From Dehalococcoidia bacterium (GTDB lineage Bacteria; Chloroflexota; Dehalococcoidia; Lucifugimonadales; Australimonadaceae), in assembly GCA_963668465.1 (NCBI GenBank), contig OY764542.1, positions 1,094,153 to 1,158,152 of the forward strand: a stretch of DNA of 64,000 bases. The letters run 5' to 3'. Below the pieces are notes generated by a model. It ran no database searches. It was not told the DNA's origin and worked only from the letters and a program-made list of their open reading frames with translations. Numbering within the stretch: position 1 is the stretch's first letter; every line of letters begins with the position of its first letter. Positions 20,503 through 38,144 of this stretch are shown piece after piece. A program made the position numbers and the translations under genes.

Positions 20503-21009
20503 ATGACGATGTGGGGAGCAGGATTCTATGGAGACCCGTGCCGGGAGTGCGGGTACTCGTGGTCGATATCGCCGGAGGAAGGGACGGCGCTGATCCTCGA
20601 CGCGCCGCGCCGGTACGCGGAGCTGCTCGACGGCGCGGACGGCAACGTGCGGCACCCCGGCCTGACGTGGTCGGTCACGGCGTACGTCGAGCACGTCTCC
20701 GACAACCTTCGGAACTGGGCCGAGCGCATCGTGAGCGCGGTCGCGGCGGGGCAGACGGCGCTGCGCCCAACGGACCAGGATGTCGTCGCGGCGGCTCGGG
20801 GCTACGAGAGCATCCCGCTGGCGACTGCGCTCTGGTCGATGGGGCATTCGGCCGACATCTGGGCGGACGCGATGGCGGCGTCAGCGGGGCAGGACATCGT
20901 CTTCGCCCACCCGACGCGCGGGCAGCAGTCGCTGGCCGAGCTCGTGCTGACTGTCGCGCACGACACGGCGCATCACGAGTGGGACATCCGGCGGTCGTTG
21001 GGGACGTAG
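20503..21009 (+). CDS. DinB/maleylpyruvate-isomerase-N-terminal-like metal-binding protein
   Basis: 168 aa with His-rich helices (YVEHVSDNL.., TVAHDTAHHEWDI) resembling DinB-superfamily four-helix bundles. Confidence 0.45.
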   Translation: MTMWGAGFYGDPCRECGYSWSISPEEGTALILDAPRRYAELLDGADGNVRHPGLTWSVTAYVEHVSDNLRNWAERIVSAVAAGQTALRPTDQDVVAAARGYESIPLATALWSMGHSADIWADAMAASAGQDIVFAHPTRGQQSLAELVLTVAHDTAHHEWDIRRSLGT

Positions 21010-21068
21010 GGGCGGCCCTGTCATGCTGAGCGGACCGTCAGTCCCCCTGCGTGCGCTGCCCGCGCACC

Positions 21069-21097
21069 CTGGATTCCCGCCGGTGCGGGAATGACGG
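21069..21097. repeat. Short hairpin repeat, inverted copy of 18997-19024, followed by T5
   Basis: ctggattcccgccggtgcgggaatgacggggttttt read directly. Confidence 0.65.
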
Positions 21098-21120
21098 GGT
21101 TTTTCGCGCACCCGGATCGG

Positions 21121-21450
21121 CTACTTCGGGGGGAGGCTGAGGGCGTAGGCGGCGCCGGTGGCGACCCAGTCTTCGAGCGTCGCGTCGTCGTCAGTGCCGT
21201 CGGGGCCGACGACGATCCAGCCGCGCATGGGCCTGCCGGTGAAGTCCATCTCGCGGACGTGGGGTTTCGTGAGCGCGGCCTCGTACTCGTCCTTCGGGAC
21301 GCGGACCATCAGGTCGCTCCCCAGGACGCCGCAGGCCATGTTGCCCTGCAGCATGACGGCGACGCCGCCGAACATCTTCTTCTCCACGAGCGACGGCTCC
21401 GCGCCGAGGATGTCGAGCACGCGCTCGGTCAGTCGTTCGTCGTAGGGCAC
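21121..21450 (-). CDS. TfoX N-terminal domain protein
   Basis: 109 aa; ..EKKMFGGVAVMLQGNMACGV..LMVRV.. is the characteristic TfoX_N pattern. Confidence 0.7.
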   Translation of the reverse strand: MPYDERLTERVLDILGAEPSLVEKKMFGGVAVMLQGNMACGVLGSDLMVRVPKDEYEAALTKPHVREMDFTGRPMRGWIVVGPDGTDDDATLEDWVATGAAYALSLPPK

Positions 21451-21461
21451 CAGCCGCCTCC

Positions 21462-23105
21462 TTACTCCTGCCGCGCTCTGTCCTGCTCGATGAGGACGCG
21501 CCGCAACAGTTTACCGGAGGCGTTCTTGGGAATGGCGTCGATGAATTCGACCTCGCGCAGCTGCTTGAACGTCGCGACGCGCTCCGCAACGAACGCCATG
21601 AGTTCATCGGCAGAAGGCGCGTGGTCCGCTTTGCAGACCACGTACGCCTTCGGCACCTCGCCTGCTTCGTCGTCGGGCATCGGGATGACGGCGGCGTCGG
21701 CGACGCCGGGGTGTTCGAGCAGCAGGCCCTCCAACTCGGCGGGCGCGACCTGGAAGCCCTTGTACTTGATGAGCTCCTTTTTGCGGTCGACGATGCTCAC
21801 GTAGCCGTCCTCGTCCATGCTGGCGATGTCGCCGGTGTGGAACCAGCCGTCCGGCGTGATGGCCTCCGCAGTCGCCTCCGGCTGGCGGTAGTAGCCCTTC
21901 ATCACCTGCGGGCCGCGTACCAGCAGCTCGCCGAGTTCACCAGGCGGGAGATCGCAATCGCCGGACTCGAGGTCGACGATGCGCTCCTCGGTGTCCGGCA
22001 GCGCGGGGCCTATCGTGCCGGGCCTGCCGCGCTCGTCGGTGAAGTCGGTGTTGGTCATGGGGGATGTCTCGGTGAGGCCGTAGCCCTGGATGACGGCGCA
22101 GCCGAGCCGCTCCGCGAGGCGGGTCTGCAACTCGCCGGAGAGCGGGGCCGCTCCGGTGAGCAGGAATCGCAACGATGAGACGTCGTACTCGTCGAGCAGC
22201 GGCGTCAGCGTGAGGCCGAGGCAGACGGGCGGCACGGTGTAGAGCACCGTCATGCGGTGCTCCGCGATGAGCGCCAGCATCTCGCGCATGTCGAAGCGCC
22301 CCATCATCACCTGCGTCGCTCCGGCGGCGATGGCGCTCAACTGGAGCACGGTCATGCCGTAGATGTGGAAGAGCGGCAGGTGCACGAGCATCACGTCGCC
22401 GCGCCGGACGACGCCGTCCTCGCCGGGGCGTCCGAGGTTCTGCCGGACGTTGGTATGGAGGTTGGAGTGCGTGAGCATGACGCCCTTCTGCAGGCCGGTG
22501 GTGCCGGAGGAGAAGGGCAGCGCGGCGATGTCCTCGTAGGGGTCGAGCGCGGGCTCGGGCGGCGGGCCGCTCTGCGCCTCGATGAGCGACCAGAACGAGG
22601 GCGCCGTATCGGCGTCTTCCGTGATGAGGACGCGTCCTATGGCCTCCTCCGAGCCGGACAGCGCGAGGTCGGCGGCGTCCGCCAGCGTGTGATGGACGAT
22701 GAGCGCCTGTGCGCCGGAGGCCTCCAGCTGGTACGCGATCTCGCGTTCTCGGTATCCGGAGTTGATGGTGGTGACGGTGGCGCCAGCCTTGAGTATGCCG
22801 AAGAAGGCAATCTCGAACTCGGCGCAGTTGGGCGAGAGGATGCCCACGATGTCACCCTTGCCGAGGCCCATCGCGGCGAGGGCGGACGCGAACCTGCCGG
22901 AGTGCGCGTCCAGCTCCGCGAAGGTGAACCGGCGGTCGCCGTCGATGATGGCGGTCTCGTCGGGCCATCGCTCGGCGGCCTGCTGCAGCAGTCGCTGGAC
23001 GGGCTCCGGGTTGTATGGGGCGAGTGATGAGCGGCTCATGGGCTTCGGCTGACCTGTGCGTCCGTGATTCGGCGTGAAACTATCCGACGCGCCGGTAGCA
23101 GTCAA
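21462..23105 (-). CDS. AMP-dependent acyl-CoA synthetase/ligase (4-coumarate/long-chain fatty-acid CoA-ligase-like)
   Basis: FSSGTTGLQKGVMLTH (AMP-binding core), GYGLTETS, GWFHTGDI, KYKGFQVAPAELE, and a C-terminal KNASGKLLRR. Confidence 0.85.
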   Translation of the reverse strand: MTATGASDSFTPNHGRTGQPKPMSRSSLAPYNPEPVQRLLQQAAERWPDETAIIDGDRRFTFAELDAHSGRFASALAAMGLGKGDIVGILSPNCAEFEIAFFGILKAGATVTTINSGYREREIAYQLEASGAQALIVHHTLADAADLALSGSEEAIGRVLITEDADTAPSFWSLIEAQSGPPPEPALDPYEDIAALPFSSGTTGLQKGVMLTHSNLHTNVRQNLGRPGEDGVVRRGDVMLVHLPLFHIYGMTVLQLSAIAAGATQVMMGRFDMREMLALIAEHRMTVLYTVPPVCLGLTLTPLLDEYDVSSLRFLLTGAAPLSGELQTRLAERLGCAVIQGYGLTETSPMTNTDFTDERGRPGTIGPALPDTEERIVDLESGDCDLPPGELGELLVRGPQVMKGYYRQPEATAEAITPDGWFHTGDIASMDEDGYVSIVDRKKELIKYKGFQVAPAELEGLLLEHPGVADAAVIPMPDDEAGEVPKAYVVCKADHAPSADELMAFVAERVATFKQLREVEFIDAIPKNASGKLLRRVLIEQDRARQE

Positions 23106-23149
23106 CGCGGCGGCAGTATGCGCGGACTCCTATAATGCGCTTGTCTGTC

Positions 23150-23181
23150 GATGACACGTCCGAGTGATGACACGTCCGAGT
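23150..23181 (+). promoter_or_regulatory. Perfect 2 x 16-bp tandem direct repeat in the PKS leader; candidate operator
   Basis: gatgacacgtccgagt occurs twice back to back, ending 11 nt before the PKS ATG. TATAAT at 23131-23136 lies just upstream. Confidence 0.5.
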
Positions 23182-23192
23182 GAGAGGAAGTG

Positions 23193-26100
23193 ATGGCATC
23201 CGAGGGGAAGGTCGACTCCAGCAGACTCCCCAGCGAGTCCGTGGGCGGAGAGCCCATCGCGGTGGTAGGGATGGCGTGCCGGTTCCCCAGCGCCACGGGG
23301 CTTCCGGCGTTCTGGCGTCAGTTGGAGGCCGGTGAGAGCGCGGTCATCGAGGGCGTTCCAGGTTCCGGCGTCGGGCGCGTGGGCTACCTCTTCCCGGACG
23401 CAGCGGTACAAGCCGAGGCGTGCCGTTTCGGGGCGTACATCGACGAGATCGACCAGTTCGACGCGGGGTTCTTCCGCATCTCCCCGGTGGAGGCGCAACT
23501 GCTGGACCCGCAGCAGCGGCTGATGCTGGAGACGAGCTGGCGAGCGCTCGAAGACGCGGGGATCGACCCGGACACGCTGAAGGGCAGCCGCACCGGGGTC
23601 TACGCGGGCATCAGCAACAACGAGTACCGGGGGCTGATCCTTGGCGTCAGCGACACCGCCGACCCCGCCACGAGCCTCTACACGGTCACCGGCACGTCGT
23701 TCAACACGGCCATCGGGCGCGTGGCGTTCGCACTGGGGCTGCAAGGGCCGGCGATAGCGGTGGACACGGCGTGCTCGTCGTCGCTCGTGGCGGTGCACCA
23801 GGCAATCGTCGGTTTGCAGCGCGGCGAGGCCGACCTTGCGCTCGCGGGAGGCGTGCACGCGATCCTGTCGGGGCGGTTGCTCGAGCTGCGAGCGAACGCC
23901 GGGATGCTGGCGCCTGACGGCCAATGTAAGACGTTCGACGCCGCAGCGAACGGGTACGTGCGGGGCGAGGGCTGCGGCCTCCTCGTGCTGAAGCGGCTGA
24001 GCGAGGCGGAGGCGGACGGCGACCGGATCTGGGGCGTGATACGCGGCTCGGCGCTGAACCAGGACGGGGCGAGCCAGGGGCTGACGGTGCCGAGCGAGAG
24101 CGCCCAGGAGCAGGTGATCGAGGCGGCGTTGCTCCGGGCAGGGCTGGAGCCGTGGGAAGTGGACTACGTGGAGGCGCACGGGACGGGGACGCCGGTGGGC
24201 GACCCGATCGAGATGCAGGCCACGGGAACGGTGTACAGCAGGGGCCGCGAGGCAGACCGTCCGCTCCTCGTCGGGTCGGTGAAGACGAACATCGGCCACC
24301 TGGAGTCCGCGGCGGGCGCCGCCAGCCTCATCAAGGTGATGCTGGCGATGAAGCACCGGGTCATCCCGAAGCACCTGAACTTCCGCAACCCGAACCCGGA
24401 GATCGACTGGGAGCGGATGACGGTGCGGGTGGCGTCGGAGACGATGGAGTGGCCGGTCGTTCCCAACCGTCCACCCCGAGCAGGAGTGAGTGGATTCGGA
24501 TGGTCGGGCACGAACGCGCACGTCATCGTGGAGGGGTACGGGGAGCCTATAGCCGCTGACGCGGGGAACGGTCTGCCGGCGGGGCCTTCGGTGGCTATCG
24601 CGGTTGCGCAGGCGGAGGCTGGACACCCCCATCCTAGCCTTCCCCCATCGAGGGGGAAGGGACCGGAAGTCTCGACAGCGGAGGAATGGGAGTTGGCGGC
24701 GCGGGGGACGCGACTGCTGCCGCTGTCGGGGAAGTCGAGGCAGGCGCTCAGGGAGCAGGCGGAACGGTATATCGCGTGGCTCGACGAGCATCCCGAGCAG
24801 TTCCCACACGACGGCGCGGCCAGCGGCGAAGCGCTGTCAGACATGGCGTGGACAGCGAGCGTCGGGCGGAGTCACTTCCCGCACCGCTCGGGCGTTGTCT
24901 TTCGCAATGCGGCGTCGCTGCGCGAGCGGCTGCGGGAGGTCGTGGAGGGGGACGACACGCCCGACGGGCCAGAGCCGAAGCCTGCGTCCAAGGTGGCGTT
25001 CGTCTACACCGGCCAGGGCAGCCAGTGGGTGGGGATGGGAGAGGCGCTGTACGAGAGTGAGCCGGTGTTCCGCGCGGTGCTCGACCGGTGCGAGCGATGG
25101 GTGCAGGAGCACCGGGGAGCGTCGCTGCTGGACGTGCTGTTCGGACGGCCCGGCGCGACGGGCAGCCTCGACGACCCGATGTGGACGCAGCCCGCGACCT
25201 ACGCGCTCCAGTGCGGGCTGACTGCGCTCTGGTCGAGCCTGGGCGTGCATCCGGACGTCGTGATGGGCCATAGCCTCGGTGAGATTGCGGCTTCGCAGAC
25301 TGCAGGCGTGTTCAGCCTCGAGGACGGGCTACGGTTCGCGGCGACGCGCGGCGAGCTGATGGCGTCGCTGCCGGTGTCGGGCGCGATGGCGGCGGTGTTC
25401 GCGCCTGAGGCCCACGTGGGGGCTGCTCTAGAGGAGTGGAACGCTGCGACAGAGGGGCTGGGGTTGAGCGTCGCGGCAGACAACGGAGCGCACCAGGTGG
25501 TGAGCGGCGAGGCGGGGGAGGTAGAGCAGATCGTGCAGCGGTTCGAGGCAGAGGGGCTTCGCGTGAACCGGCTGCGGAGCAGCCCCGGCTACCACAGCGT
25601 GCTCGTGGAACCGGCGCTGGACGATCTGGCTGCTGTGGTTGGCGACCTTGCGGTCGCGCCGCCGTCCATCCCACTGGTGAGCAACGTGACTGGCCGGTTG
25701 ATCGCGCAGGGCGGCGTGCAGGACCCGGCGTACTGGCGGCGGCACGCGCGGCAGCCGGTGGCGTTCCGGGGGTGCGTCGAGACGCTGGCCGAGATGGGCG
25801 TCGACGCAGTCGTGGAACTGGGGCCGCACACGGTGCTGGGGCCGATGGCGAGCCTCGCGTGGCCGGAGACGAGCGCCGCCCCGGCGGTGCTATCGAGCCT
25901 GCACCGACCGCCGCGGGACCCGGCAGAGCCCATCGTGGACTCGACGGGTGGGTTCATCGAAGGAGTCGCCGCGGCGTACGAGGCGGACATCCCGTTCTCG
26001 TTCGCAGGGCTGTTCGCCGGGGAATCGCGGCGGCGGGTCGCGCTGCCGGGGTATCCATTCCAGCGGCAGTCGTACTGGGTCGACGAGGTGCGGCGGCGGC

Positions 26101-29100
26101 GCGCGGCCGCGGGGCATCCGTTGCTGGGGACCCGGCACGAGTCACCTCGCGGCGAGACGTCGTTCGAGTCGGAGCTATTCCCGGCGGACCCGGTCTGGCT
26201 AAACGATCACCGGGTGTTCGGGCGGGTAATCGCACCGGGCGCGCTGTACGGGGCGATGGCGGCGTCGGCGCTGGCGAACGCACAAGGGTCGGTGGCAGTG
26301 GAGGAGATGCAATTGCTCACCCCGCTGGTCCTGCCCGAACAGGACGGAGAGCAGGGTTCAAGGCAGGCGGGGCGGAGCGTGCAGATGGTGCTGGACGCTC
26401 CGGAAGGGACGTCGCCCCGGGGGTTCGAGATATTCAGCCGTGGCGATGGGGAAGAAGCGTGGACGCTGCACGCTCAGGGACGAGTGTCGTCGGCTGCGGA
26501 ACGGCAGGCACGCGAGCGGATCGACGTCGACCAACTCAAGGCCGGTCTGTCCGCAGTGGAACTGCCGGCGTTTTACCGGGCGCGCGCCGAAACGAACATC
26601 AACCTCGGTCCGTCGTTCCGAACGCTCCAGGGGCTCTGGCGCGGAGAGGGCAAGGCGATCGGCGAGATAGTGCTGCCCGAAGCGGTGGACGGCGCAGGGC
26701 TGCCCGTGCACCCGGTGCTGCTGGACGGCTGCTTCCAGGTGATGGCGGCGGCGCGCAACCGGGAGGGGAGCGAAGACGGAGCGACCTACCTGCCCTTCGG
26801 ATGGGAGCGGCTCTGGCTGGCGGAGCGATTGCCGGAACGGGTGGTCTGTCACGCCCGCATGCGGGAGAGCGTCCGCGAAGCGGGTAGCGATGGTGAAGCC
26901 GCCGAGCCGAGGGAGGTATTCGCTGGCGACCTGCGGTTCTACTCCGTGGACGGGGTCGAACTCGGCGGACTGAGCGGGTACACGGTGAAGCGGGCGACGC
27001 GAGCAGCCGTGCTGTCGGGGACCGAGGGAGTGAACGACCTTCTCTACGAGGTCATCTGGCGCGACAAGCCGCTTCCGCAAGGGATGCCATCCGCCGACTT
27101 CCTTCCGAGGCCGTCTGCCATCGCGGCGGGTTCCAATCCATTCTCAGGGTATCTGGTCGCGGAGGGTGTCGGAGCCGACGAACGAACAGCGCTGCTGACG
27201 GACCTCGAGCGGCTGTCGTGGCGGTACGCGCTCGCGGCGCTCGAACAGTTGGGCTGGAAGCGGCAGGCCGGAGAAGCGGTTGAGCCCGAACCCCTGCGGG
27301 AGCGGTTCGGGGTTTCGGCAGAGCACACACGACTGTTCCGTCGGCTGTTCGAACTGCAGGCGAGGGCCGGCGTCGTGGAGGCAGCAGGCGATGGCTTCGT
27401 CGTGCTGGCCGGGGGCGACGACCCACTCCCGGAAGCGGTGCCGAGCGATCCTGAGGCGTTCGCGGACGGGATGGCGTCGCGCTACGCGCATGGTTCGGTT
27501 GAAGTGGGACTGTTCCGGCGGTCCGCCGCAGCACTGGCGGAGGTGCTCGTCGGGAAGGCGGACCCGCTGACGCTGCTATTCAGCAGCGGGGAGCCGACCG
27601 CAGCCGACCTGTACATGCGGGCGCCGGTGGCGCGAGCGGCGAACCGGATGCTGGGCGACGCCGTCGCTGCGCTGCTGGAAGCGTTCCCGGATGGGCGTCG
27701 GTTGCGCGTGTTGGAGGTCGGCGCGGGCACGGGTTCGGCGACGGAACTGGTGTTGCCGGAGCTTCCAGCAGGCCGGTTCGACTACGTCTACACGGACATA
27801 TCGGCGGGCTTCTTCGCGGAGGCGGAGGGACGCTTCGGCGGGAGTGAAGCGTCGATCGAATACCGGGTGCTGGACGTCGAGAAGGACCCGGTGGCGCAGG
27901 GGTTCGACTCGCACGGGTACGACCTCGTCATCGCATCGAACGTGTTGCACGCGACACGCTACCTGGAGGAGACGCTCGCACACTGCCGTGACCTCCTCGC
28001 GCCGTCGGGGCAGTTGCTGGCGCTCGAGAACCTCCGCGGCCAAGGGTGGCTCGACCTCACATTCGGGCAGCTGGACGGCTGGTGGCGGTTCGCCGACTCC
28101 TACCGTCCGCATCATGCGCTGGCGAGCCCCGCGGTGTGGCGGCAGGCGCTCGGCGACGCGGGGTTCGTGGAGGCGGAGGTGCTGGGGGTGGAGGCGTCCG
28201 CATCGGCGGAGCCGGACAGGGGCGTCATCATGGCGCAGGGGCCGTCGGAAGTCATGGAACCGGCAGGCGTCTGGGTGCTCGCGGGCGACAAGGGCGGCGT
28301 GGGGGAGCAACTCGCGACGGAATTAGCGGGGCGCAACCAGACCGTGGTGCTGGCGGGCGCGGGGGTGGAAGGGGAGGACCGCGAGTCGTGGCGTTCGTTG
28401 CTGGAAGGGCTGCCTGTGGACCTGCCATTGAACGGCGTCGTCCATCTCATGGCGTTGGACGGGCATGGCCCGGATGCCACCACCGATGAGTTCGCACAAG
28501 ATGTAAGACATGCGGCGGCGAGCGCGCTTGCGCTCGTGCAGGGCATGACCGACGCCGACGTGACTCCCGTCAAGGGATTGTGGTTGGTCACGCGCGGCGG
28601 ACAGGTGCTGGAGAAGGAGCACGGCGGAGAGATCGCCGGCGCGACGCTGTGGGGGTTCGGGAAGGTGGTGGCGCGGGAGGCGGCGCACCTGCAACCGAGG
28701 ATGATCGACCTCGATCCGGGAGCGCCAGCGTCGATGTCGGATCTCGTCAACGAACTGCTGTACCCGGACTCGGAGACGCATATCGCCCATCGCCGGGGGT
28801 ACCGTCAGGTAGCAAGACTGGTTCGGGCCGGAAGCGCAACCGAGCGGTTGGCGCTGTCAGAAGACTCGGCCTGGCTGCTGGAGCCGGACGCAGGCGGTGC
28901 GCTCGAAGGGCTGCAGATAGGCCCCTTCCCTGCCCGTCCGCTGGAGCCGCGAGACGTCCGGATCGCGGTCGAGGCTGCGGGGCTCAACTTCTGGGACCTG
29001 TTCCGCGCGCTCGGCCTCATCGACGAAGGGTTGCTGGGCGGCGAGTTCTGTGGGCGGGTGCTCGGAGTGGGTAGCGATGTGACCAGCGTCTCGGTGGGAG

Positions 29101-32100
29101 AGCGGGTTGTTGGGCTGGCGTTCGGGACGTTCGGGTCCGAGGCCATCACGCGGGAGGAGATGGTTGCGCCTGCGCCGCCAGGGTTCCCGGTAGCGGACCT
29201 CGCCACGATCCCGACGGCGTTCGTGTCGGCGGCGCTCTCGTTCGACCTTTCGGGGCTGAACCCCGGCGACCGGGTGCTCATCCATTCCGGCGCGGGAGGC
29301 GTGGGGCTGGCCGCCATACAACTGGCGCAGGCGGCGGGGGCCGAGGTGTTCGCGACCGCGAGCGCGCCGAAGCAGGCGTATCTCCGCGAGTTGGGCGTAC
29401 AGCACGTATTCGACAGCCGCTCGACGAAGTTCGGGCAGGAGATACTCGACGCTACGGGCGGCGAGGGCGTTCACGTCGTGGTGAACAGCCTGACGGGAGA
29501 GGGCTTCATCGATGCGAGCTTGTCGTGTCTCGCGCAGGGCGGGCGGTTCATCGAACTGGCCCGGTTGGACATCCTGTCCGAGGAGGAGATGGCGGCGGTA
29601 CGGCCTGACGTCTCCTACTCGATCCTGATGCTGGACGTGCTGAAGGAGCATGACCCTGCGACGCCCGGGAACGCCCTGAGGCGCGTCATGCGGCAGCTGG
29701 CAGCGGGCGAGGTGACGCCGCTCGTCCATACCCGGTGGTCGATGACCGAAACCGGGCCTGCGATGAAGTTCATGCGGGCGGCACGGCACATCGGAAAGAT
29801 CGTCCTGGCGAACTCGCCCGTCGAGAGCGGGAGGCTGCGTGAGGACAGGACGTACCTCGTGACCGGCGGACTCGGTGGCATCGGGTGTGCGCTGGCGGAG
29901 TGGCTGGCAGAGCGGGGCGCAGGCGCTATCGTGCTGAATGGGCGTCGTCCTCCAGACCCCGAGGTGGCCGAGGCCATCGATGCCTTGCGCGAGCGCGGTG
30001 TGACCGTGCAGGTGGAGACCGCGGACGTGACGGACGCGGCGGCGGTCGACGGGATGCTGGAGCGCATCGATGCGACGCTGCCGCCGCTGGCGGGCGTCAT
30101 CCACAGCGTGGGTGTGCTGTCGGACGCGGCGCTGACGAACCAGAGCTGGGAGCGATTCGAGGACGTGCTTTGGCCAAAGGTGCTGGGGGCCTGGCACTTG
30201 CACCGCGCGACCATCGGACGCGACCTCGACATGTTCGTTCTGTTCTCGAGCGTGGCGGGGGTGCTGGGCAACCCGGGGCAGGCGAACCACGCCGCGGCCA
30301 ACGCATTCCTCGACCAGCTCGCCGGTCACCGGCGGGCGCTGGGGCTTCCCGGCCAGACCATCGCGTGGGGCGCGTGGTCGGGGCTGGGCGAGGCGGAGGA
30401 ACAGCGAGAGCGCATCGCGAGGCAGTTGGAGGCAGCGGGAACGGGCTGGATCACGCCGGAGCAGGGGCTCAAGGCGTTCGACGAGGTGCTGCGGCAGGAC
30501 ATGACCACCGGGATGGTGGCGTCGGTGGACTGGCAGGTCTTTTCGGAGGGGCACGAGCAACGTCCGCCATTGTTGAAGGAGCTGCTGGCCACGACCGAGG
30601 ACAGCGCCGCCGAGGCGGCTACGTCGCCGGGCGACATGCTGTCCGGCCTCTTGGACGCGTCGCTGGCGGAGCGTGAGCAGATGCTGGCATCGTTCCTGCA
30701 GCGGGAACTGCAGGCGGTGATGCGTCTGCCGACTCCTCCGGCCGCATCGGTGGAGTTCTCCGAGCTGGGGATGGACTCGCTGATGGCGGTGGAGTTACGC
30801 AACCGTGTGAACCGCGCATTCGCCGGAGAGTACGTGGCGCCGAACACTGTGGTGTTCGATTACCCGAGCGTCACGGCGCTCGCGCGTCACCTGGCCGGAG
30901 AGCTCGGTGAGCCTGCCGAAGCGGCGCTCCCGGAGCGGCGCGCGCCGGAAGTGCAAGTGCGGTCCGTCGTGGGAGACGGCATCGCCATCGTTGGGATGGC
31001 GTGCCGGTTCCCCGGCGCGGAGGACCTCTCGGCTTTCTGGCGCCAATTGGAAGCAGGCGAGAGCGCAATAGCAGACGGGCGCGAGGGGTCCGGCGACTGG
31101 AATGGCGCCGTAGGAGACCCTGCGGTGACAGACGCTTCCTACGTGCGGGGAGGGTTCGTCAAGGACATCGATCTGTTCGACTCCCGGTTCTTCCGTATCG
31201 CCCCGATCGAGGCCCGGATGATGGACCCGCAGCAGCGGATGATGCTGGAGACGAGCTGGCAGGCGCTGGAGGATGCGGGCATAGACCCTGACCGGTTGCG
31301 GGGCAGCCGCACGGGGGTCTACGCGGGCGTCGGGGGCAGCGAATACCGGGACCTCATCCAGACCAGCGGCAGGTTCAACAGCTACCTCGGCACCACAGGG
31401 AGCGTGACCGTTGGCCGCGTTGCGTTCGCGCTGGGCCTGGAGGGGCCCGCGATGCCGATGGACATGGCGTGCGCGTCGTCGCTGGCCGCCGTGCACCAGG
31501 CGGTTGCCGGCCTGCAGCGGGGCGAGGTGGACCTCGCGCTTGCGGGCGGCGTGAACGCTGTGCTGTCCGCGTCGGTCACGAGGTTCATGGCGGACCTCGG
31601 CATGTTGTCGGCCAACGGCGAGTGCAGGACGTTCGACGCAGCCGCGGATGGTTACGTGCGGGGCGAGGGCTGCGGTATCGTGGTGCTGAAGCGCCTTAGC
31701 GACGCGGAGGCAGACGGCGACCGGATATGGGGCGTCATCCGCGGCTCCGCGGTGAACCAGAACGGCGCGAGCATGGGGCTGACCGTCCCCAAGGGGCCGG
31801 CGCAGGAACGCGTTATCGAGGAAGCACTCGCACGGGCGGGCGTCGAACCCTCGGAAGTGGACTACCTGGAAGCGCACGGGGTCGGGTCGAACCTGGGCGA
31901 CCCCGTCGAGGTGCGCGCGGCGGCGGCGGTGTACGGCAGGGGGCGCGAAGCAGACCGCCCGCTCCTCGTGGGGTCCGTGAAGACGAACATCGGCCACCTG
32001 GAGTCCGCAGCGGGCATCGCCGCCTTCATCAAGGCTGTGCTCGCGATGGAGCACGGCGTAATCCCGAAGCACCTGCACCTCGACAACCCGAACCCCAACC

Positions 32101-33266
32101 TGGATTGGGAGCAACTCCCCGTACAGGTGACCACGGCCATGACCGACTGGCCGCCCGTCTCCGGCCGTCCGCCACGAGCAGGTGTGAGCGCGTTCGGACT
32201 CTCGGGCACCAACTCGCACGTCATAGTCGAGGGCTACGGAGAGCCGGACGCTGGCGGTGGGAACGGCTGGCCTGCGGGGCCTGCGGTACCGATCGCCGTT
32301 CCTGCGCCGGAGTCCGCAATCGATGGAACGCTCACGGTGCGAGGAACCCGGTTGCTGCCCCTCTCAGGGAAGACGGACCGCGCCCTGCGAGAGCTTGCCG
32401 GGCGCTATCTGTCGTGGCTGGACGAACATCCTGAGCTGTTCCCGCCCGGGTGTACCGGGAGCGATGAAGCGCTGTCTGACTTGACCTGGACGGCGAGCGT
32501 TGGACGCAGCCACTTCCCGTACCGCGCGGGCGTGGTGTTCCGGGATGTGGCATCGCTGCGCGCCCGGCTGCGGGCCGTGAGCGAAGAGGACGAGATGCCT
32601 GACGGGCAGGAGCCGCGAGTCGCGTCGAGGGTCGCTTTCGTCTACAACGGCGAAATTGGCCAGTGGGCAGAGGTGGGACAGGCGCTATACGAGAGCGAAC
32701 CGGTGTTCCGTGCGGTGCTGGACCGGTGCGATGCAGCGCTACGTGAGGTGCGCGGCGCTTCGCTGCTGGACGTGATGTTCGGTCGGTCTGGCGCTGCGGG
32801 TGGCCTCGACGATCCGGCATGGACGCAGCCTGCGATCTACGCCTTGGAATGCGCGCTGACGGCCCTCTGGTCAAGCGTGGGTGTGCGTCCGGACGTGGTT
32901 GTGGGCCACGACCGAGGCGAGACAGCAGCGTCGCAGGCGGCAGGCGTATTCAGCCTCGAGGATGGCCTGCGATTTGCAGCAACGCGCGGCGAGTTGATGG
33001 CATCAGGTGCGGAGACCAGCCTCGGAGCGGCCCTCGACGGAGTGGTTGTTGCTTCGCCGTCCATACCTCTGGTTCGTAGCCTCACGGAAGAGCCTGGGAT
33101 CGACTTCTCGGTCGAGTTGAACCCGAACGGCGGGTTCCTGGACGCGGTAGCCGAGGCATACGAGGCCGGCCTCCCGCTCTCGTTCCCGGGGCTGTTCGCT
33201 GGGGAGTCCAGGCGGCGTGTCTCACTACCGGGGTATCCGTTCCAGCGCAGACGTCACTGGGTCTAG
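23193..33266 (+). CDS. Type I polyketide synthase: KS-AT-DH-cMT-ER-KR-ACP-KS-AT(degenerate), with no terminal ACP or TE
   Basis: KS1 DTACSSS (about 23770) with EAHGTGT and KTNIGH. AT1 GHSLGE (25266-25283). DH HPLLG..P and LLDGCFQ. Methyltransferase LEVGAGTGS. MDR-type ER HSGAGGVGLAAIQ. KR TGGLGGIG. ACP GMDSL (Ser codon 30777-30779). KS2 DMACASS (Cys codon 31470-31472). AT2 GHDRGE (32904-32921) with large internal deletions. The ORF ends at YPFQRRRHWV. Confidence 0.9.
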   Translation: MASEGKVDSSRLPSESVGGEPIAVVGMACRFPSATGLPAFWRQLEAGESAVIEGVPGSGVGRVGYLFPDAAVQAEACRFGAYIDEIDQFDAGFFRISPVEAQLLDPQQRLMLETSWRALEDAGIDPDTLKGSRTGVYAGISNNEYRGLILGVSDTADPATSLYTVTGTSFNTAIGRVAFALGLQGPAIAVDTACSSSLVAVHQAIVGLQRGEADLALAGGVHAILSGRLLELRANAGMLAPDGQCKTFDAAANGYVRGEGCGLLVLKRLSEAEADGDRIWGVIRGSALNQDGASQGLTVPSESAQEQVIEAALLRAGLEPWEVDYVEAHGTGTPVGDPIEMQATGTVYSRGREADRPLLVGSVKTNIGHLESAAGAASLIKVMLAMKHRVIPKHLNFRNPNPEIDWERMTVRVASETMEWPVVPNRPPRAGVSGFGWSGTNAHVIVEGYGEPIAADAGNGLPAGPSVAIAVAQAEAGHPHPSLPPSRGKGPEVSTAEEWELAARGTRLLPLSGKSRQALREQAERYIAWLDEHPEQFPHDGAASGEALSDMAWTASVGRSHFPHRSGVVFRNAASLRERLREVVEGDDTPDGPEPKPASKVAFVYTGQGSQWVGMGEALYESEPVFRAVLDRCERWVQEHRGASLLDVLFGRPGATGSLDDPMWTQPATYALQCGLTALWSSLGVHPDVVMGHSLGEIAASQTAGVFSLEDGLRFAATRGELMASLPVSGAMAAVFAPEAHVGAALEEWNAATEGLGLSVAADNGAHQVVSGEAGEVEQIVQRFEAEGLRVNRLRSSPGYHSVLVEPALDDLAAVVGDLAVAPPSIPLVSNVTGRLIAQGGVQDPAYWRRHARQPVAFRGCVETLAEMGVDAVVELGPHTVLGPMASLAWPETSAAPAVLSSLHRPPRDPAEPIVDSTGGFIEGVAAAYEADIPFSFAGLFAGESRRRVALPGYPFQRQSYWVDEVRRRRAAAGHPLLGTRHESPRGETSFESELFPADPVWLNDHRVFGRVIAPGALYGAMAASALANAQGSVAVEEMQLLTPLVLPEQDGEQGSRQAGRSVQMVLDAPEGTSPRGFEIFSRGDGEEAWTLHAQGRVSSAAERQARERIDVDQLKAGLSAVELPAFYRARAETNINLGPSFRTLQGLWRGEGKAIGEIVLPEAVDGAGLPVHPVLLDGCFQVMAAARNREGSEDGATYLPFGWERLWLAERLPERVVCHARMRESVREAGSDGEAAEPREVFAGDLRFYSVDGVELGGLSGYTVKRATRAAVLSGTEGVNDLLYEVIWRDKPLPQGMPSADFLPRPSAIAAGSNPFSGYLVAEGVGADERTALLTDLERLSWRYALAALEQLGWKRQAGEAVEPEPLRERFGVSAEHTRLFRRLFELQARAGVVEAAGDGFVVLAGGDDPLPEAVPSDPEAFADGMASRYAHGSVEVGLFRRSAAALAEVLVGKADPLTLLFSSGEPTAADLYMRAPVARAANRMLGDAVAALLEAFPDGRRLRVLEVGAGTGSATELVLPELPAGRFDYVYTDISAGFFAEAEGRFGGSEASIEYRVLDVEKDPVAQGFDSHGYDLVIASNVLHATRYLEETLAHCRDLLAPSGQLLALENLRGQGWLDLTFGQLDGWWRFADSYRPHHALASPAVWRQALGDAGFVEAEVLGVEASASAEPDRGVIMAQGPSEVMEPAGVWVLAGDKGGVGEQLATELAGRNQTVVLAGAGVEGEDRESWRSLLEGLPVDLPLNGVVHLMALDGHGPDATTDEFAQDVRHAAASALALVQGMTDADVTPVKGLWLVTRGGQVLEKEHGGEIAGATLWGFGKVVAREAAHLQPRMIDLDPGAPASMSDLVNELLYPDSETHIAHRRGYRQVARLVRAGSATERLALSEDSAWLLEPDAGGALEGLQIGPFPARPLEPRDVRIAVEAAGLNFWDLFRALGLIDEGLLGGEFCGRVLGVGSDVTSVSVGERVVGLAFGTFGSEAITREEMVAPAPPGFPVADLATIPTAFVSAALSFDLSGLNPGDRVLIHSGAGGVGLAAIQLAQAAGAEVFATASAPKQAYLRELGVQHVFDSRSTKFGQEILDATGGEGVHVVVNSLTGEGFIDASLSCLAQGGRFIELARLDILSEEEMAAVRPDVSYSILMLDVLKEHDPATPGNALRRVMRQLAAGEVTPLVHTRWSMTETGPAMKFMRAARHIGKIVLANSPVESGRLREDRTYLVTGGLGGIGCALAEWLAERGAGAIVLNGRRPPDPEVAEAIDALRERGVTVQVETADVTDAAAVDGMLERIDATLPPLAGVIHSVGVLSDAALTNQSWERFEDVLWPKVLGAWHLHRATIGRDLDMFVLFSSVAGVLGNPGQANHAAANAFLDQLAGHRRALGLPGQTIAWGAWSGLGEAEEQRERIARQLEAAGTGWITPEQGLKAFDEVLRQDMTTGMVASVDWQVFSEGHEQRPPLLKELLATTEDSAAEAATSPGDMLSGLLDASLAEREQMLASFLQRELQAVMRLPTPPAASVEFSELGMDSLMAVELRNRVNRAFAGEYVAPNTVVFDYPSVTALARHLAGELGEPAEAALPERRAPEVQVRSVVGDGIAIVGMACRFPGAEDLSAFWRQLEAGESAIADGREGSGDWNGAVGDPAVTDASYVRGGFVKDIDLFDSRFFRIAPIEARMMDPQQRMMLETSWQALEDAGIDPDRLRGSRTGVYAGVGGSEYRDLIQTSGRFNSYLGTTGSVTVGRVAFALGLEGPAMPMDMACASSLAAVHQAVAGLQRGEVDLALAGGVNAVLSASVTRFMADLGMLSANGECRTFDAAADGYVRGEGCGIVVLKRLSDAEADGDRIWGVIRGSAVNQNGASMGLTVPKGPAQERVIEEALARAGVEPSEVDYLEAHGVGSNLGDPVEVRAAAAVYGRGREADRPLLVGSVKTNIGHLESAAGIAAFIKAVLAMEHGVIPKHLHLDNPNPNLDWEQLPVQVTTAMTDWPPVSGRPPRAGVSAFGLSGTNSHVIVEGYGEPDAGGGNGWPAGPAVPIAVPAPESAIDGTLTVRGTRLLPLSGKTDRALRELAGRYLSWLDEHPELFPPGCTGSDEALSDLTWTASVGRSHFPYRAGVVFRDVASLRARLRAVSEEDEMPDGQEPRVASRVAFVYNGEIGQWAEVGQALYESEPVFRAVLDRCDAALREVRGASLLDVMFGRSGAAGGLDDPAWTQPAIYALECALTALWSSVGVRPDVVVGHDRGETAASQAAGVFSLEDGLRFAATRGELMASGAETSLGAALDGVVVASPSIPLVRSLTEEPGIDFSVELNPNGGFLDAVAEAYEAGLPLSFPGLFAGESRRRVSLPGYPFQRRRHWV
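24624..24666 (+). repeat. REP-like 43-nt palindromic element, copy b, inside the PKS coding sequence (KS1-AT1 linker)
   Basis: cacccccatcctagccttcccccatcgagggggaagggaccgg; translated in-frame as HPHPSLPPSRGKGP. The paralogous KS2-AT2 linker lacks this stretch. Confidence 0.8.
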
Positions 33267-33294
33267 GGCGCCACACGAACGTTTAGCTCTGAAG

Positions 33295-34203
33295 TCAGAT
33301 AGCCCTGACCTCATCCAGGAATGCAAGCATCGTTTCAACGCATTCGCGAGGCTCTTCCAGTTGCAGGAAATGTGTCGTATCCGGCAAAAAGTCGTAGCCG
33401 ACGCTTTCGATGTCGCTGAGATCAAGAGTAGGGAGATAAGAGTATGGAAGGGTAGGATCGGCTCCGATGACCTTCACGGGGCAAAGGAAGGAATCGAAGT
33501 CGACTCCCATGGCGTAGACGCCGGCATACTCGATCATCCGGGCTTCGTATTCACGAGGGCATCGCAGCTGATAACCATCCCCGTCGTCGCTCCTGCGCAG
33601 TGTCGTCCGAGCAACCAAGTCGTGGACTCCCGGAACGACCTTTCTGTACAGGGGCGCCAGAGGAAGAACCTCCATGAGCTGCTCCAGCGAATGGAATCGC
33701 TCAGTACGGTGGCGGGCTATGTATGCGGTGCGGATCGCCACGGCATCGAATTCTTCGTAGCTTCGACCAGGCTTGCATAGAGGCGGGTCGAACAGGACAA
33801 GCGCCGAGTAGTCCTTTCCCCTGGCCTGGGACAGGAGCGATACCAGCGCTGAAACGGAGTGGAAGACCCCAATCGTGGGTTTGGCTCCGAAGTGCAGGTT
33901 GACGGCTTCGAGGATGCGGTCATGGTCGGCGACGTGAGTTGGGATGTGGTGCTTCTCGATCGGGCTGAGGCGATTCCAGCCGTGGTTACGCAAGTCATAC
34001 ACGATGACGTCGAAGTCGTTGGTGAGGAGAGACCAGAACGGATAGTAGAGGTCGATGGCGAGACCGTTGCCGTGACTCAGGAGAAGCCGGGGTCCATCCG
34101 GATTGCCGTGACGCCGCAGCGTAATGACCGTGTCGGCATCCACTCGCACGTCGAGTGTGGAGAGAGGTTCTGGCACCTGCCAGACCGCTTCCGCAGGTGG
34201 CAT
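33295..34203 (-). CDS. Alpha/beta-hydrolase fold protein; candidate chain-releasing or editing hydrolase
   Basis: About 302 aa. HGNG oxyanion-like motif, nucleophile-elbow-like GVFHSVSA, and a C-terminal ..DTTHF.. His. The ATG overlaps the PPTase stop (TGATG). Confidence 0.65.
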   Translation of the reverse strand: MPPAEAVWQVPEPLSTLDVRVDADTVITLRRHGNPDGPRLLLSHGNGLAIDLYYPFWSLLTNDFDVIVYDLRNHGWNRLSPIEKHHIPTHVADHDRILEAVNLHFGAKPTIGVFHSVSALVSLLSQARGKDYSALVLFDPPLCKPGRSYEEFDAVAIRTAYIARHRTERFHSLEQLMEVLPLAPLYRKVVPGVHDLVARTTLRRSDDGDGYQLRCPREYEARMIEYAGVYAMGVDFDSFLCPVKVIGADPTLPYSYLPTLDLSDIESVGYDFLPDTTHFLQLEEPRECVETMLAFLDEVRAI

Positions 34204-34970
34204 CAACGTGCAAGGCCTGTAAGGGGATGGGCGTTCAGATCGGATCCGGCCAGGGAGGTGGCTGGGCTTAGTTCGTGGGCGATGGCCGCAACGAAGTCCT
34301 TGTTCTCGAAACCATGCACAAACCAGCGGTCCGACGGCGCCTGGGGAAACGTGAAGATAGCGGAGTTGGCGCCACGGCGCATCGCCGGCGGGACTTCGAA
34401 TGAGGATGCGTCCAGGGACAGACCCGTTCCCAGGGCTTTGACGAGGGCTTCCTTGACCGTCCAGAGCTTGAAGAAAGCACGATGTCTGTCACTGCCTGTG
34501 GTTGAAGCGAGATCCGCTTGCTCAGCAGGCGTGAATACGGCATCGATGAGAATGTCCACATTGCGGTGGGGAGTGCACTCCTCCACGTCGACGCCCAACC
34601 GACCCTCAGGGGCAAGCGCAACGAGTCCGTGTTCCCCGCTGTGGCTGACGTTGAAGCTGATGCAAGCGGGAAGCCCCTGCACGATGGCGAATGGCTTCTC
34701 GTGCTCTGAGGCCCCGAAAGCAAGTTGCTCGTTGCAGCAGCCGAGGTCGTGACTCAGCAGCGCACGGAGAGCAGCGCGGCAGAGTGTGAAACGGCGTCGC
34801 GGCCCAGGGTTGGTGAATCTGGAGGCACGCGCCCGCTCTTGCTCATCCAGCCAGGAGAACGCTTCGGCTTCTCTGGCTGGATGAGGGCTCAGATCGACAT
34901 GCGAGACGACAGCGCTTCCGACCTGTCCGATAGAACTCCACCAGTGTCCGGTGACGGAAGAGGTCGCCAT
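34203..34970 (-). CDS. Sfp-type 4'-phosphopantetheinyl transferase
   Basis: FNVSHSG, LGVDVE and FKLWTVKEALVKALG motifs. Confidence 0.85.
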   Translation of the reverse strand: MATSSVTGHWWSSIGQVGSAVVSHVDLSPHPAREAEAFSWLDEQERARASRFTNPGPRRRFTLCRAALRALLSHDLGCCNEQLAFGASEHEKPFAIVQGLPACISFNVSHSGEHGLVALAPEGRLGVDVEECTPHRNVDILIDAVFTPAEQADLASTTGSDRHRAFFKLWTVKEALVKALGTGLSLDASSFEVPPAMRRGANSAIFTFPQAPSDRWFVHGFENKDFVAAIAHELSPATSLAGSDLNAHPLTGLAR

Positions 34971-34991
34971 TGCACGTCTGTCTAAACCGGA

Positions 34992-35237
34992 CTAGGCGGA
35001 TTTGCTGTCGAGGAAGGCAACAACCTTCGGGAGGTCCGTCAGGGCAGCGCAGTCGTCAGGAGTGAAGGTGACGTTGAAGTCCTGGGCTATCAGCTTCGCC
35101 AGTGCAACGATGTCTGTGGAAGACACTCCGGCGTCCACCAGGCTGAGGTTCAAGTCCTCCGGGACGTCCAAGGCCTTGCCATCCACTTCGATGTTCTCAC
35201 TGACCAGCTGCCTGATCCGTTCCGCGCTTGAGGCCAT
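34992..35237 (-). CDS. Discrete acyl/peptidyl carrier protein
   Basis: 81 aa; LVDAGVSSTDIVALAKLI resembles the carrier-protein Ser-attachment helix. AAGGAG lies upstream of ATG 35237. The track ORF extends further upstream. Confidence 0.65.
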   Translation of the reverse strand: MASSAERIRQLVSENIEVDGKALDVPEDLNLSLVDAGVSSTDIVALAKLIAQDFNVTFTPDDCAALTDLPKVVAFLDSKSA

Positions 35238-35412
35238 CAGGGTAACTCCTTTCGGGGGTCCGCATGGGTGCGGGAGGCGTTGGCACGAGGATAGCGACAC
35301 ACTCCCGACGGGGTCAAGTTCGAGTGCCGAAACTCCGGCCTCGTGACGCCGTCAGGCGAGGACTACCGCGGGGCTAAGAGTAGCCAGGTTTTGAGCCTCC
35401 AGGACACCGTGT

Positions 35413-35569
35413 GACATCTGCCCTTTTCGCGGTTGGGCATGCAATTCCTAACCTCTTCCGCACACCCGTGGCAGTCAACACGGGCACCAGGAGAGGTGAC
35501 AGGAATGCTGACCAAAGTGAATACGTGTGCGCTTACCGGACACGACGGGCAGATCATCGAGGTGGAAGT
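35413..35569 (+). pseudogene. Truncated duplicate of the comM/yifB 5' end plus its upstream leader (left direct repeat)
   Basis: About 93% identical by eye (10 substitutions and 1 indel) to 38145-38302. It includes ATG 35505 and about 21 conserved codons (MLTKVNTCALTG.DGQIIEVEV), after which similarity stops. Confidence 0.8.
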
Positions 35570-35754
35570 AGTGCATCGTGTCCTCCTTACGGTCTGCACG
35601 GGCCAGCCCCGGCCGTTCGCGGTTGCTCTGGTCAACGTTCCAAGGCCCACTTCGACGCCTGCCTGGTTCGCTGAGGGCATGCCGGTTGAGGGAGATCAGG
35701 AACCGTATGTCCCATCGCGAAGGGGCACAGGCGTCAGGCCGTGCAAGCGTGTCG

Positions 35755-36420
35755 CTAGTCCTCCTTAGCCAAGGCATCTACCAGGCCGTTCTGCACGGCC
35801 CAGAGCACCAACTGCTGCATCGACCCGATCCCGAGTTTGTGCTGGATGCCGTAGACGGCATTGCGAACGGTCACCGGCTGGACACCCCTCGCCTCCGCTA
35901 TCCGGGCGTAGGACATGCCGGTCGCGAAGGAGGTGAGTATCTCGCGCTCCCTTGGGGTGAGCCCGTCGATGTCCCTCGCCCTCGCACTGTAGCGTCTCCT
36001 TATGAACACTTTCCGTACAACCTCAGCCGGCAGGCGGAGTTCCCCCATGATTACGTCCCGCACGGCTGCGAGCAGTCGTTCCCGGCCCACTTCTTTCGGT
36101 ACGTACCCCGACGCGCCTGCAGCCACGGCTTCCACCACAGCGTCCTCGTCCGGCGAGGCCGTCAGCATGACCACGAGGGTCTCAGGGGCGGATTCCATGA
36201 TCTCCCTGCAGGCCTCAACCCCATCCTTCTCCGGCATCATCACATCCATCATGATCAGGTCCGGCGACACGTCGGCGGCCATCCTGACCGCCTCGACGCC
36301 ATCCACGGCCTGTCCCACCACCTCGTACTCGCCGGTCTGCTCCAGGAGCTGACTGAGGCCAAACCTCACGACCTCATGGTCGTCGACGATCATCACCCTC
36401 GTGCGCTTGCCTGGTGCCAT
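35755..36420 (-). CDS. NarL/FixJ-family response regulator (REC plus LuxR-type HTH)
   Basis: VMIVDDHEVVR..DLIMMDVMMPEKDG receiver motifs; C-terminal LTPREREILTSFATGMSYARIAEARGVQPVTVRN. Confidence 0.9.
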   Translation of the reverse strand: MAPGKRTRVMIVDDHEVVRFGLSQLLEQTGEYEVVGQAVDGVEAVRMAADVSPDLIMMDVMMPEKDGVEACREIMESAPETLVVMLTASPDEDAVVEAVAAGASGYVPKEVGRERLLAAVRDVIMGELRLPAEVVRKVFIRRRYSARARDIDGLTPREREILTSFATGMSYARIAEARGVQPVTVRNAVYGIQHKLGIGSMQQLVLWAVQNGLVDALAKED

Positions 36421-36432
36421 AGCAGTCTCCCT

Positions 36433-37680: not shown

Positions 37681-37744
37681 CTCTTTTCCCGGCGGTCGTT
37701 GGTTCTGAGGGGCGCCCCAGGTCATGCAGGGAGTCTCAAGGCGT

Positions 37745-37756
37745 CCCCCCCCCCCC
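37745..37756 (-). repeat. Homopolymeric G12 tract (C12 on the + strand) at the 5' end of the histidine-kinase ORF
   Basis: Counted directly. On the minus strand: TTG-GC-G12-ACG. Confidence 0.95.
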
Positions 37757-38144
37757 GCCAATCTAGTCAGCCTGGCCTATGCCCGCAAGAAGCAGATGCC
37801 CCTGACGACGTAGCAATAGTACCTATGGCGCATCGTTACATCGCACGCCCGCGCTGAAGGACGCGCCTGTAAGGGCGCCTGTTCCGGGTATGGCCTGAGG
37901 CTGGTGCCAGGGATGTGAGGCGCATCTGGTACCAGCGAATGTGACGTCTTCGAGTGGTCTCATGGGAGCAGATGCCCGTTCCAAGGCAGGCGCTCCCGCT
38001 GTGGGTGTGGATATTACCCTTCGTTGTGCTCGCACTGATCGGTGGCAGCATCGCGTACGCGCGCAGTCGGTCCTAGGTACAGATTCCCAACTAACCGGAC
38101 GCGTGGGCTAGCCGTGCTGCCGCGAGGGCCTCGTACGACAATGC

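Follow-up and report, generated by a model that had tools for sequence, protein, structure and literature searches.

We analyzed a 64,000-nucleotide stretch (hereafter, the window) of contig OY764542.1 from a Dehalococcoidia bacterium of the phylum Chloroflexota. Its central element is a forward-strand gene for a type I polyketide synthase (PKS), in which one complete module is followed by a second ketosynthase (KS) and the remnant of a second acyltransferase (AT). Nearby are genes for a discrete acyl carrier protein (ACP), a phosphopantetheinyl transferase (PPTase) and an alpha/beta hydrolase. We read it as a probable member of the sup (sponge symbiont ubiquitous PKS) type of cluster, here from a SAR202/Dehalococcoidia bacterium, that would work by a split-module mechanism.

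The reading frame of the synthase is uninterrupted from 23190 to 33266 (+). An ATG at 23193 is preceded by a ribosome-binding site (GAGAGGAAG), and a GTG at 23190 is an alternative start that would give 3358 aa. An exact-sequence look-up found the identical 3357-aa product on public record. In Pfam searches, the first module resolved into KS (residues 21-398), AT (604-883), dehydratase (DH, 976-1273), methyltransferase (MT, 1489-1659), enoylreductase (ER, 1920-2206), ketoreductase (KR, 2221-2397) and PP-binding (2503-2568) domains, and the 3' part of the gene into a second KS, a KS C-terminal extension, a linker domain and a partial second AT. No carrier, thioesterase (TE) or reductase domain follows the second AT in this map. 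Both the domain order proposed in an initial annotation of the sequence and its statement that the protein ends after the post-AT linker, without ACP, TE or reductase, are therefore borne out. The features of the gene are listed below, where KS1 and AT1 denote the first and KS2 and AT2 the second copies and cMT the C-methyltransferase:

23193..33266 (+): SupA-like type I PKS, 3357 aa, KS-AT-DH-cMT-ER-KR-ACP-KS-(AT remnant); the ATG start is that of the public gene call
23250..24569 (+): KS1, with Cys195 and the HGTGT and NIGH motifs
24975..25904 (+): AT1, intact and probably malonyl-specific, with GQGSQ, GHSLGE and GYHS motifs
26115..27008 (+): DH, with HxxxGxxxxP and DxxxQ motifs
27654..28166 (+): cMT, with the S-adenosylmethionine (SAM) motif LEVGAGTGS
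28947..29807 (+): ER, with the motif GGVGLAA
29850..30380 (+): KR, with the NADPH motif, Lys, Ser and Asn kept and the catalytic Tyr replaced by His2367
30696..30893 (+): cis ACP, LGMDSL, with Ser2530
30960..32294 (+): KS2, an ancient KS1 paralogue, with Cys2761, His2896 and His2936
32295..32669 (+): KS-AT linker domain of the second didomain (Pfam KAsynt_C_assoc, a CurL-like/RhiE-like linker)
32670..33089 (+): AT2 remnant, with GEIGQ for GQGSQ and GHDRGE for GHSLGE; small subdomain and His motif deleted
33090..33263 (+): post-AT linker, ending the protein in LPGYPFQRRRHWV

To follow the synthase across genomes, one genome per species was scanned with KS2-AT2 as the query, and the domains and neighbors of the window were mapped onto the 77 loci recovered. 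One of these (L075) is an ordinary multimodular PKS and was set aside as an outgroup, and the other 76 are counted here as the family. Seventy-six of the 77 loci share the order KS-AT-DH-MT-ER-KR-ACP-KS, followed by a variable tail and the same stop, and all 76 relatives form one clade apart from the modular outgroup. They are spread over six phyla (Chloroflexota, Actinomycetota, Pseudomonadota, Latescibacterota, Thermodesulfobacteriota/Dadabacteria and Nitrospirota). The labels of their metagenome-assembled genomes (MAGs) include SAR202/Dehalococcoidia/Chloroflexota, Acidimicrobiia (among them Ca. Aldehydirespirator and Ca. Poriferisocius), Gammaproteobacteria (among them Ca. Rariloculaceae and Arenicellales), Latescibacterota, Dadabacteria/Thermodesulfobacteriota and Nitrospirales. 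Judging by their bin names, we take these MAGs to be sponge-derived. The synteny comparison suggested in the initial annotation thus returns the same synthase in 76 genomes, usually together with ACP, PPTase and hydrolase genes. In one Ca. Aldehydirespirator contig (L073:1-17613) two sup clusters lie in tandem, the end of a PKS with ACP and hydrolase genes being followed by a second, complete PKS.

KS2-AT2 is an internal duplicate of KS1-AT1, as had been proposed from the letters alone, and the two share 65% identity over 712 aa. We built a neighbor-joining tree of 151 KS domains rooted on the multimodular PKS, in which KS1 (n = 70) and KS2 (n = 77) are reciprocally monophyletic and KS2 is sister to the condensing KS1. 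The duplication is therefore older than the spread of the family, and a recent internal duplication was rejected. Mean identity is 73% within KS1 and 68% within KS2 compared with 59% between them, and the same pattern of identity is seen inside the single protein. The Cys of KS2 is kept in all 76 genomes, as is its second His, and the first His is kept in 73. The window protein has both His2896 and His2936, in agreement with the initial annotation, whose codon position for Cys2761 (TGC, 31470-31472) is also exact. The HGTGT His, the loss of which is a hallmark of KS0 domains, is present in the window as well as in 73/76 genomes. Among nine close relatives, the ratio of nonsynonymous to synonymous substitution rates (dN/dS), computed region by region, is 0.057 for KS1, 0.064 for KR, 0.077 for ER, 0.085 for MT, 0.086 for KS2, 0.087 for ACP and 0.133 for AT1, and about 0.21 for the AT2 remnant and both linkers. 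The value for KS2 indicates constraint like that on the catalytic domains. Overall, KS2 goes back to one ancient duplication and is under strong purifying selection. It is nearly always accompanied by discrete ACP, PPTase and hydrolase genes, and its residues and constraint suggest that it very probably does real work together with the free ACP. A KSQ-type or priming role for KS2 was rejected.

AT2 is a vestige, which decays stepwise to nothing across the family. In the window, 37 AT2 residues stand where AT1 has residues 727-915, comprising the small subdomain and the His motif, and the post-AT linker resumes after them. The initial annotation had called AT2 dead from this deletion together with the GEIGQ and GHDRGE replacements (the Asp of the latter is indeed GAC 32910-32912), and the comparison confirms it. 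None of the 76 genomes has a canonical GHSxG in AT2. The active-site variants include GHGxG, GQGxG and GHDRG, with QSVG in one genome, and GQGSQ is scrambled; by comparison, GHSxG is kept in the AT1 of 67/67 full-length family members. The tails after KS2 fall into three classes. In 51 genomes they measure 768-857 aa and include an AT remnant, those of the window lineage being the shortest of the class; in 23 genomes, mostly Acidimicrobiia, they measure about 580-610 aa with the linker alone, and in two genomes about 447 aa with KS alone. The terminal YPFQRRRHWV motif survives in every class, in 76/76 genomes and even without the AT remnant, with the stop codon directly after it. This retention of the post-AT motif fits a structural role, in which it packs against the KS.

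The KR of module 1 carries an unusual substitution. Its motif is GQANHAAANAFLD, and the catalytic Tyr of YxxxN is His2367 (codon 30288-30290); in the alignment, mycocerosic acid synthase (MAS) and the AmphB KR have their catalytic Tyr at this position. The same His occurs in 67/67 full-length family members from six phyla, so the Lys-Ser-Tyr-Asn set of a canonical KR is complete neither in the window nor in any of these. The Lys, Ser, Asn and NADPH motif are retained, and the domain is among the most constrained of the protein. Inactive KRs usually lack Asn, or lack both Ser and Tyr (PMC7327777), and the family KR fits neither class. Either this KR uses the His as its catalytic acid, or module 1 has wrongly been described as fully reducing; the conservation of the DH and ER motifs favors the former. 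The initial annotation had described the module as fully reducing, and this stands in part, as the DH, ER and ACP motifs are intact and the KR leaves the point uncertain.

The genes beside the synthase all lie on the opposite strand:

33295..34203 (-): alpha/beta hydrolase, 302 aa, Pfam Abhydrolase_6, the presumed release enzyme
34203..34970 (-): Sfp/HetI-type PPTase, 255 aa, by Pfam and NCBIfam
34992..35237 (-): discrete carrier protein, 81 aa, by Pfam, with a strong Shine-Dalgarno sequence
21462..23105 (-): acyl-CoA ligase (AMP-binding, fatty-acid-CoA-ligase-like), Pfam AMP-binding and AMP-binding_C, start codon uncertain

The stop of the PPTase gene overlaps the start of the hydrolase gene, in line with the earlier description of a convergent, translationally coupled ACP-PPTase-hydrolase operon. 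Within 10 kb of the synthase, a discrete ACP is encoded at 68 of the 76 loci, a PPTase at 58 and a hydrolase at 63. In the discrete carrier and its orthologues the attachment site reads GVSS(T/V/M)D or GVPS instead of the usual GxDS(L/I), the Ser being conserved and the preceding Asp not. His115-Ser116 and His278 of the hydrolase are invariant in 56 homologues. The AlphaFold model of the hydrolase is of moderate quality (pLDDT 72), and Foldseek returned generic alpha/beta-hydrolase matches (TM 0.5-0.6), with the CurM thioesterase of curacin among the top ones and none specific; a PDB sequence search and NCBIfam gave weak generic matches only. We retain the view of the initial annotation that this enzyme presumably releases the product.

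When all flanking ORFs were clustered, one further widespread partner emerged, a protein of ~590 aa with a Xan_ur_permease domain at 47/76 loci (for example L038:15022-16794 (-), adjoining the sup cluster). It probably corresponds to the published SupE, given that SupE (ABE03914) is the best match of an ORF annotated as a permease in a published BLAST table (PMC3908369). No acyl-CoA carboxylase or fatty acyl-AMP ligase (FAAL) gene is conserved in the flanks of the 76 loci. The acyl-CoA ligase adjoins the PKS at 6/76 loci, all six among the closest relatives of the window, and the close relatives L005 and L008 lack it. Its best NCBIfam model, long-chain-fatty-acid--CoA ligase, scores 441 bits, under the cut-off of 476. 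The divergent upstream ligase of the initial annotation is indeed in place, but it is a lineage-specific neighbor, and a role for it in the system is not supported. The core set consists of the PKS together with the free ACP, the PPTase and the hydrolase; the permease is a frequent addition, and the ligase falls outside the set. At 16-18 Acidimicrobiia loci (within L055-L076), genes for PhyH (phytanoyl-CoA dioxygenase) and an amidase follow the sup cluster, as at L064:15525-16520 and L066:15425-17113. PhyH enzymes act on methyl-branched acyl-CoAs, and such a substrate class would suit a methyl-branched lipid product.

The initial annotation did not recognise the domain order from any characterised pathway. 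We find instead that the locus fits the published descriptors of sup clusters (PMC3908369, PMC4245539, PMC9426513, PMC6306507), and that its domain order is probably that of a very common family which already has a name. Sup enzymes are small monomodular PKSs; all reports of them come from sponges of high microbial abundance, in which they are common and very diverse, and mid-chain-branched fatty acids have been proposed as their product (PMC4245539, PMC3908369); these sources cite Fieseler et al. 2007 and Hochmuth et al. 2010 for the sup work. SUP clusters occur in MAGs of Chloroflexota, Spirochaetota, Proteobacteria and Acidobacteriota independently of taxonomy (PMC9426513), and type I PKS clusters of this kind have been reported in sponge symbionts of the SAR202 group (PMC6306507). 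Both a small monomodular type I PKS with a methyltransferase and reductive loop (by the Pfam map) and an occurrence in many unrelated phyla including Chloroflexota (six phyla here) are found in the family of the window. In the 2007 work of Fieseler and colleagues, SupA is reportedly KS-AT-DH-MT-ER-KR-ACP-KS-AT, accompanied by ACP, PPTase and hydrolase genes. When the AT2 tail, the hydrolase and the MT region were used as protein queries, most matches were short metagenome fragments without a name, and none was an entry named SupA. In the accessible literature we found no functional characterisation of the sup product or mechanism and no text describing the C-terminal KS-AT of SupA.

The organization of the synthase suggests a mechanism in two parts. 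Module 1 (KS1-AT1-DH-cMT-ER-KR-ACP) would extend with malonate, C-methylate with SAM and reduce, leaving the cis ACP loaded with a saturated, methyl-branched acyl chain. KS2 would still catalyze condensation, having lost the AT that belonged to it and having been without a dedicated carrier from the start. The discrete ACP is the only conserved carrier candidate and comes with its own PPTase, so we read KS2 and the separately encoded 81-aa ACP as a putative split second module without reductive domains. The short junction between the cis ACP and KS2 is laid out like an ordinary intermodule boundary, so KS2 most likely receives the chain from the cis ACP. KS2, which has the residues for decarboxylative condensation, would then condense it with malonyl carried on the free ACP, which AT1 or the FabD of the cell may load. 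The clustered PPTase would activate both carriers, the hydrolase would release or transfer the product from the free-ACP thioester, and the AT2 remnant and post-AT linker would serve as structural support for KS2 only. While the anatomy, conservation, selection pattern and gene association described above are observations, we infer from them which way the chain flows, that KS2 pairs with the free ACP, what loads the malonate and to which class the product belongs.

As a working hypothesis, we favor a variant in which module 1 adds one methyl branch and KS2 with the free ACP passes the chain on for elongation. Module 1 would act once on a short or medium acyl primer, KS2 would condense the resulting 2-methylacyl chain with malonyl on the free ACP, and type II enzymes would complete the chain, leaving the methyl group mid-chain. 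This hand-over can be likened to that of the mycobacterial FabH, which links type I to type II fatty acid synthase (FAS-I to FAS-II), and a single pass would explain both a single mid-chain methyl and a second module without a reductive loop. The sequence is compatible with a single pass as well as with the iterative working of module 1 suggested in the initial annotation, for which methylation would be programmed. Taken together, the hand-over to a type II FAS after one methyl branch and a KR using His as its acid make a tentative proposal, one that we would sooner expect to fail than to hold in full.

Several points weigh against the assignment to the sup family and the split-module mechanism. 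The condensation by KS2 and its use of the free ACP are both deduced from sequence. The first His of KS2 is Gln in three genomes (L034-L036), and the absence of the canonical Tyr from the KR makes complete reduction uncertain. The attachment motif of the free ACP, GVSS(T)D, is atypical, and clustering of the flanking ORFs showed no discrete AT gene conserved around the 76 loci. The placement in the sup family relies on descriptors, distribution and domain order, and a SupE-like permease was not found anywhere in the 64-kb window.

We also considered KS2 as a non-condensing, KS0-like gatekeeping transacylase that would take over the finished chain of the cis ACP and hand it to the free ACP or directly to the hydrolase, setting chain length and off-loading. 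A second module with neither a working AT nor reductive domains is what such a role would look like, a KS with a vestigial AT is the usual appearance of trans-AT KSs, and Gln replaces the first His in 3/76 genomes. However, both decarboxylation His residues are present in 73/76 genomes and the second in 76/76, whereas KS0 domains typically lack the HGTGT His, and KS2 is sister to a condensing KS; we regard this role as unlikely. The initial annotation had proposed, as one hypothesis, a Pks13-like head-to-head or cross-coupling logic. In this reading, KS2 would join the product of module 1 to a second long acyl chain, activated by the adjacent ligase and carried on the free ACP. The window does contain an intact KS2, a free ACP and a ligase, and the Pks13 model of NCBIfam (NF040607) is the second-best match for KS2-AT2. 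Its score of 568 bits against a cut-off of 2100 nevertheless reflects generic KS-AT similarity. Pks13 needs a working AT for its carboxyacyl-CoA substrate, two ACPs and a TE in cis, but AT2 has no canonical GHSxG in any genome and neither a cis ACP nor a TE follows it. In addition, the ligase is present at only 6/76 loci and resembles a CoA ligase rather than a FAAL, and no acyl-CoA carboxylase is conserved in the flanks. Of the earlier proposal, the use of KS2 with the free ACP is thus very probably sound, as the catalytic residues and dN/dS suggest, and the Pks13 logic is very improbable.

If KS2-AT2 were instead a relic without function, left from a synthase that once had two modules, module 1 alone would be served by the free ACP, PPTase and hydrolase. 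The decay of AT2, with its variable length, its absence from 25 genomes and the lack of a canonical GHSxG anywhere, is what would be expected of such a leftover. On the other hand, the dN/dS of KS2 is as low as that of MT, ER and ACP, its catalytic triad has been kept across six phyla since an ancient duplication, and it is lost in 0/76 genomes, a count that is biased because the loci were found by a KS2-AT2 search. We consider this explanation highly doubtful. It is almost inconceivable that an error of assembly or a frameshift produced the 3' end and that the real gene runs on into an ACP or TE. The gene is split near AT2 on L078, a low-coverage (6x) contig 90% identical to the window, which holds the PKS (L078:10906-20909) as ORFs of 3180 and 163 aa; this split is probably a sequencing indel rather than biology. 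In contrast, the stop after YPFQRRRHWV recurs in about 75 other, independent genomes, the identical 3357-aa product is public, and the hydrolase gene ends 28 nt past the synthase stop on the opposite strand. The initial annotation had named a truncated or frameshifted 3' end as a possibility; the check revealed none, and assembly truncation was rejected.

Compared with known systems, the locus is closest to the sup cluster, with which it shares a type I PKS/FAS-like synthase of ~10 kb, whose one module includes an MT domain and a reductive loop, small accessory genes and an occurrence in many phyla of sponge-associated bacteria, including Chloroflexota/SAR202. Most relatives also share the SupE-like permease beside the synthase. 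The window differs in its inverted foreign ACP-PPTase-hydrolase operon, the lack of a permease and the acyl-CoA ligase upstream. The other widespread monomodular PKS/FAS family of sponge symbionts is the swf cluster (PMC3908369), but SwfA is KS-AT-DH-ER-KR-ACP, without MT or a second KS, and its partners SwfB and SwfC are a reductase/sulfotransferase and a radical SAM enzyme. Module 1 shares the KS-AT-DH-ER-KR-ACP order of MAS and MAS-like PKSs, which make methyl-branched fatty acids, and MAS is the best solved-structure match for the window KR. MAS, however, takes its methyl from methylmalonyl-CoA and not from a cMT, has no second KS and shows the usual Tyr in its KR; scores for the NCBIfam models Pks2 and PKS_plus_SDR lie far under their cut-offs.

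The second didomain resembles the split modules of trans-AT PKSs, in which a KS, a linker domain, a dead or absent AT and a post-AT motif end the protein and the carrier is separate. The vestigial AT and separate carrier of that class are present here, and a discrete AT gene conserved in the flanks is not. The window also differs from these modules in that KS2 and a cis-AT KS of the same protein are paralogues and in that the carrier is a stand-alone 81-aa protein and not the start of another megasynthase. With Pks13 of mycolic acid synthesis the locus shares a type I KS that may act on a carrier-delivered long acyl chain. The ACP-KS-AT-ACP-TE order of Pks13, with its flanking cis ACPs, TE and working AT, and the dedicated FAAL (FadD32) have no counterpart at the window locus.

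The surroundings of the synthase show a local rearrangement. Relative to the closest species (L047, L002), the window is collinear over 20836-33260, with about 90% DNA identity, and collinearity resumes at 38142; in these relatives a co-directional ACP-PPTase-hydrolase operon lies between the two stretches. A contig of 'SAR202 cluster bacterium bin16' matches the window at about 90% DNA identity over 12 kb and at about 87% over a further 8 kb of flank. In the window, the operon within 33261-38141 is inverted and shares 65-68% DNA identity with the copy of the relatives, compared with about 90% for the PKS. Its proteins are no closer to the L047/L002 copy than to copies in other Dehalococcoidia. 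The region also holds a 2.57-kb insert with a histidine kinase gene (36433-37761, -), flanked by 160-nt direct repeats (35410-35569 and 38142-38302) that are 93-94% identical. The convergent layout is also found in contigs L078 (90% DNA identity) and L080 (synthase of 3357 aa), which indicates that it is real. The layout points to an exchange of the accessory operon between sup lineages.

Further features lie upstream. The 87-nt divergent intergenic region contains a perfect 16-nt tandem duplication (GATGACACGTCCGAGT twice, 23150-23181) directly upstream of the ribosome-binding site of the PKS, which may be an operator or a product of slippage. Between 16000 and 18000, GC content falls to 0.53 compared with 0.62-0.70 around it, and this stretch carries a gene (16212-17645, +) with helix-turn-helix (HTH) and Peptidase_M78 (IrrE-like) domains; it may be a mobile or defence islet. 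Near the start of the window, three large purine-skewed genes on the forward strand encode a cadherin/immunoglobulin-repeat protein of 1483 aa (1363-5814), a PT-repeat protein (5818-6831) and a Calx-beta protein of 1284 aa (6843-10697). Eukaryote-like adhesion proteins are typical of host-associated bacteria.

Amplicon surveys report sup-type synthases among the most abundant PKS genes of sponge microbiomes, and in one survey >99% of KS amplicons were supA (PMC4245539). For genome scanning, the lesson of the window is that a striking domain order can turn out to be a common, already named family. To the description of that family we add a KS2 that is selected and catalytically equipped, an AT2 that is disposable, a core gene set and a family-wide Tyr-to-His change in the KR. 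If the proposal holds in full, KS2 and the free ACP would be a dedicated link from a type I synthase to the dissociated fatty-acid machinery of the cell, and the catalytic acid of the family KR would be a His and not the Tyr expected of the class.

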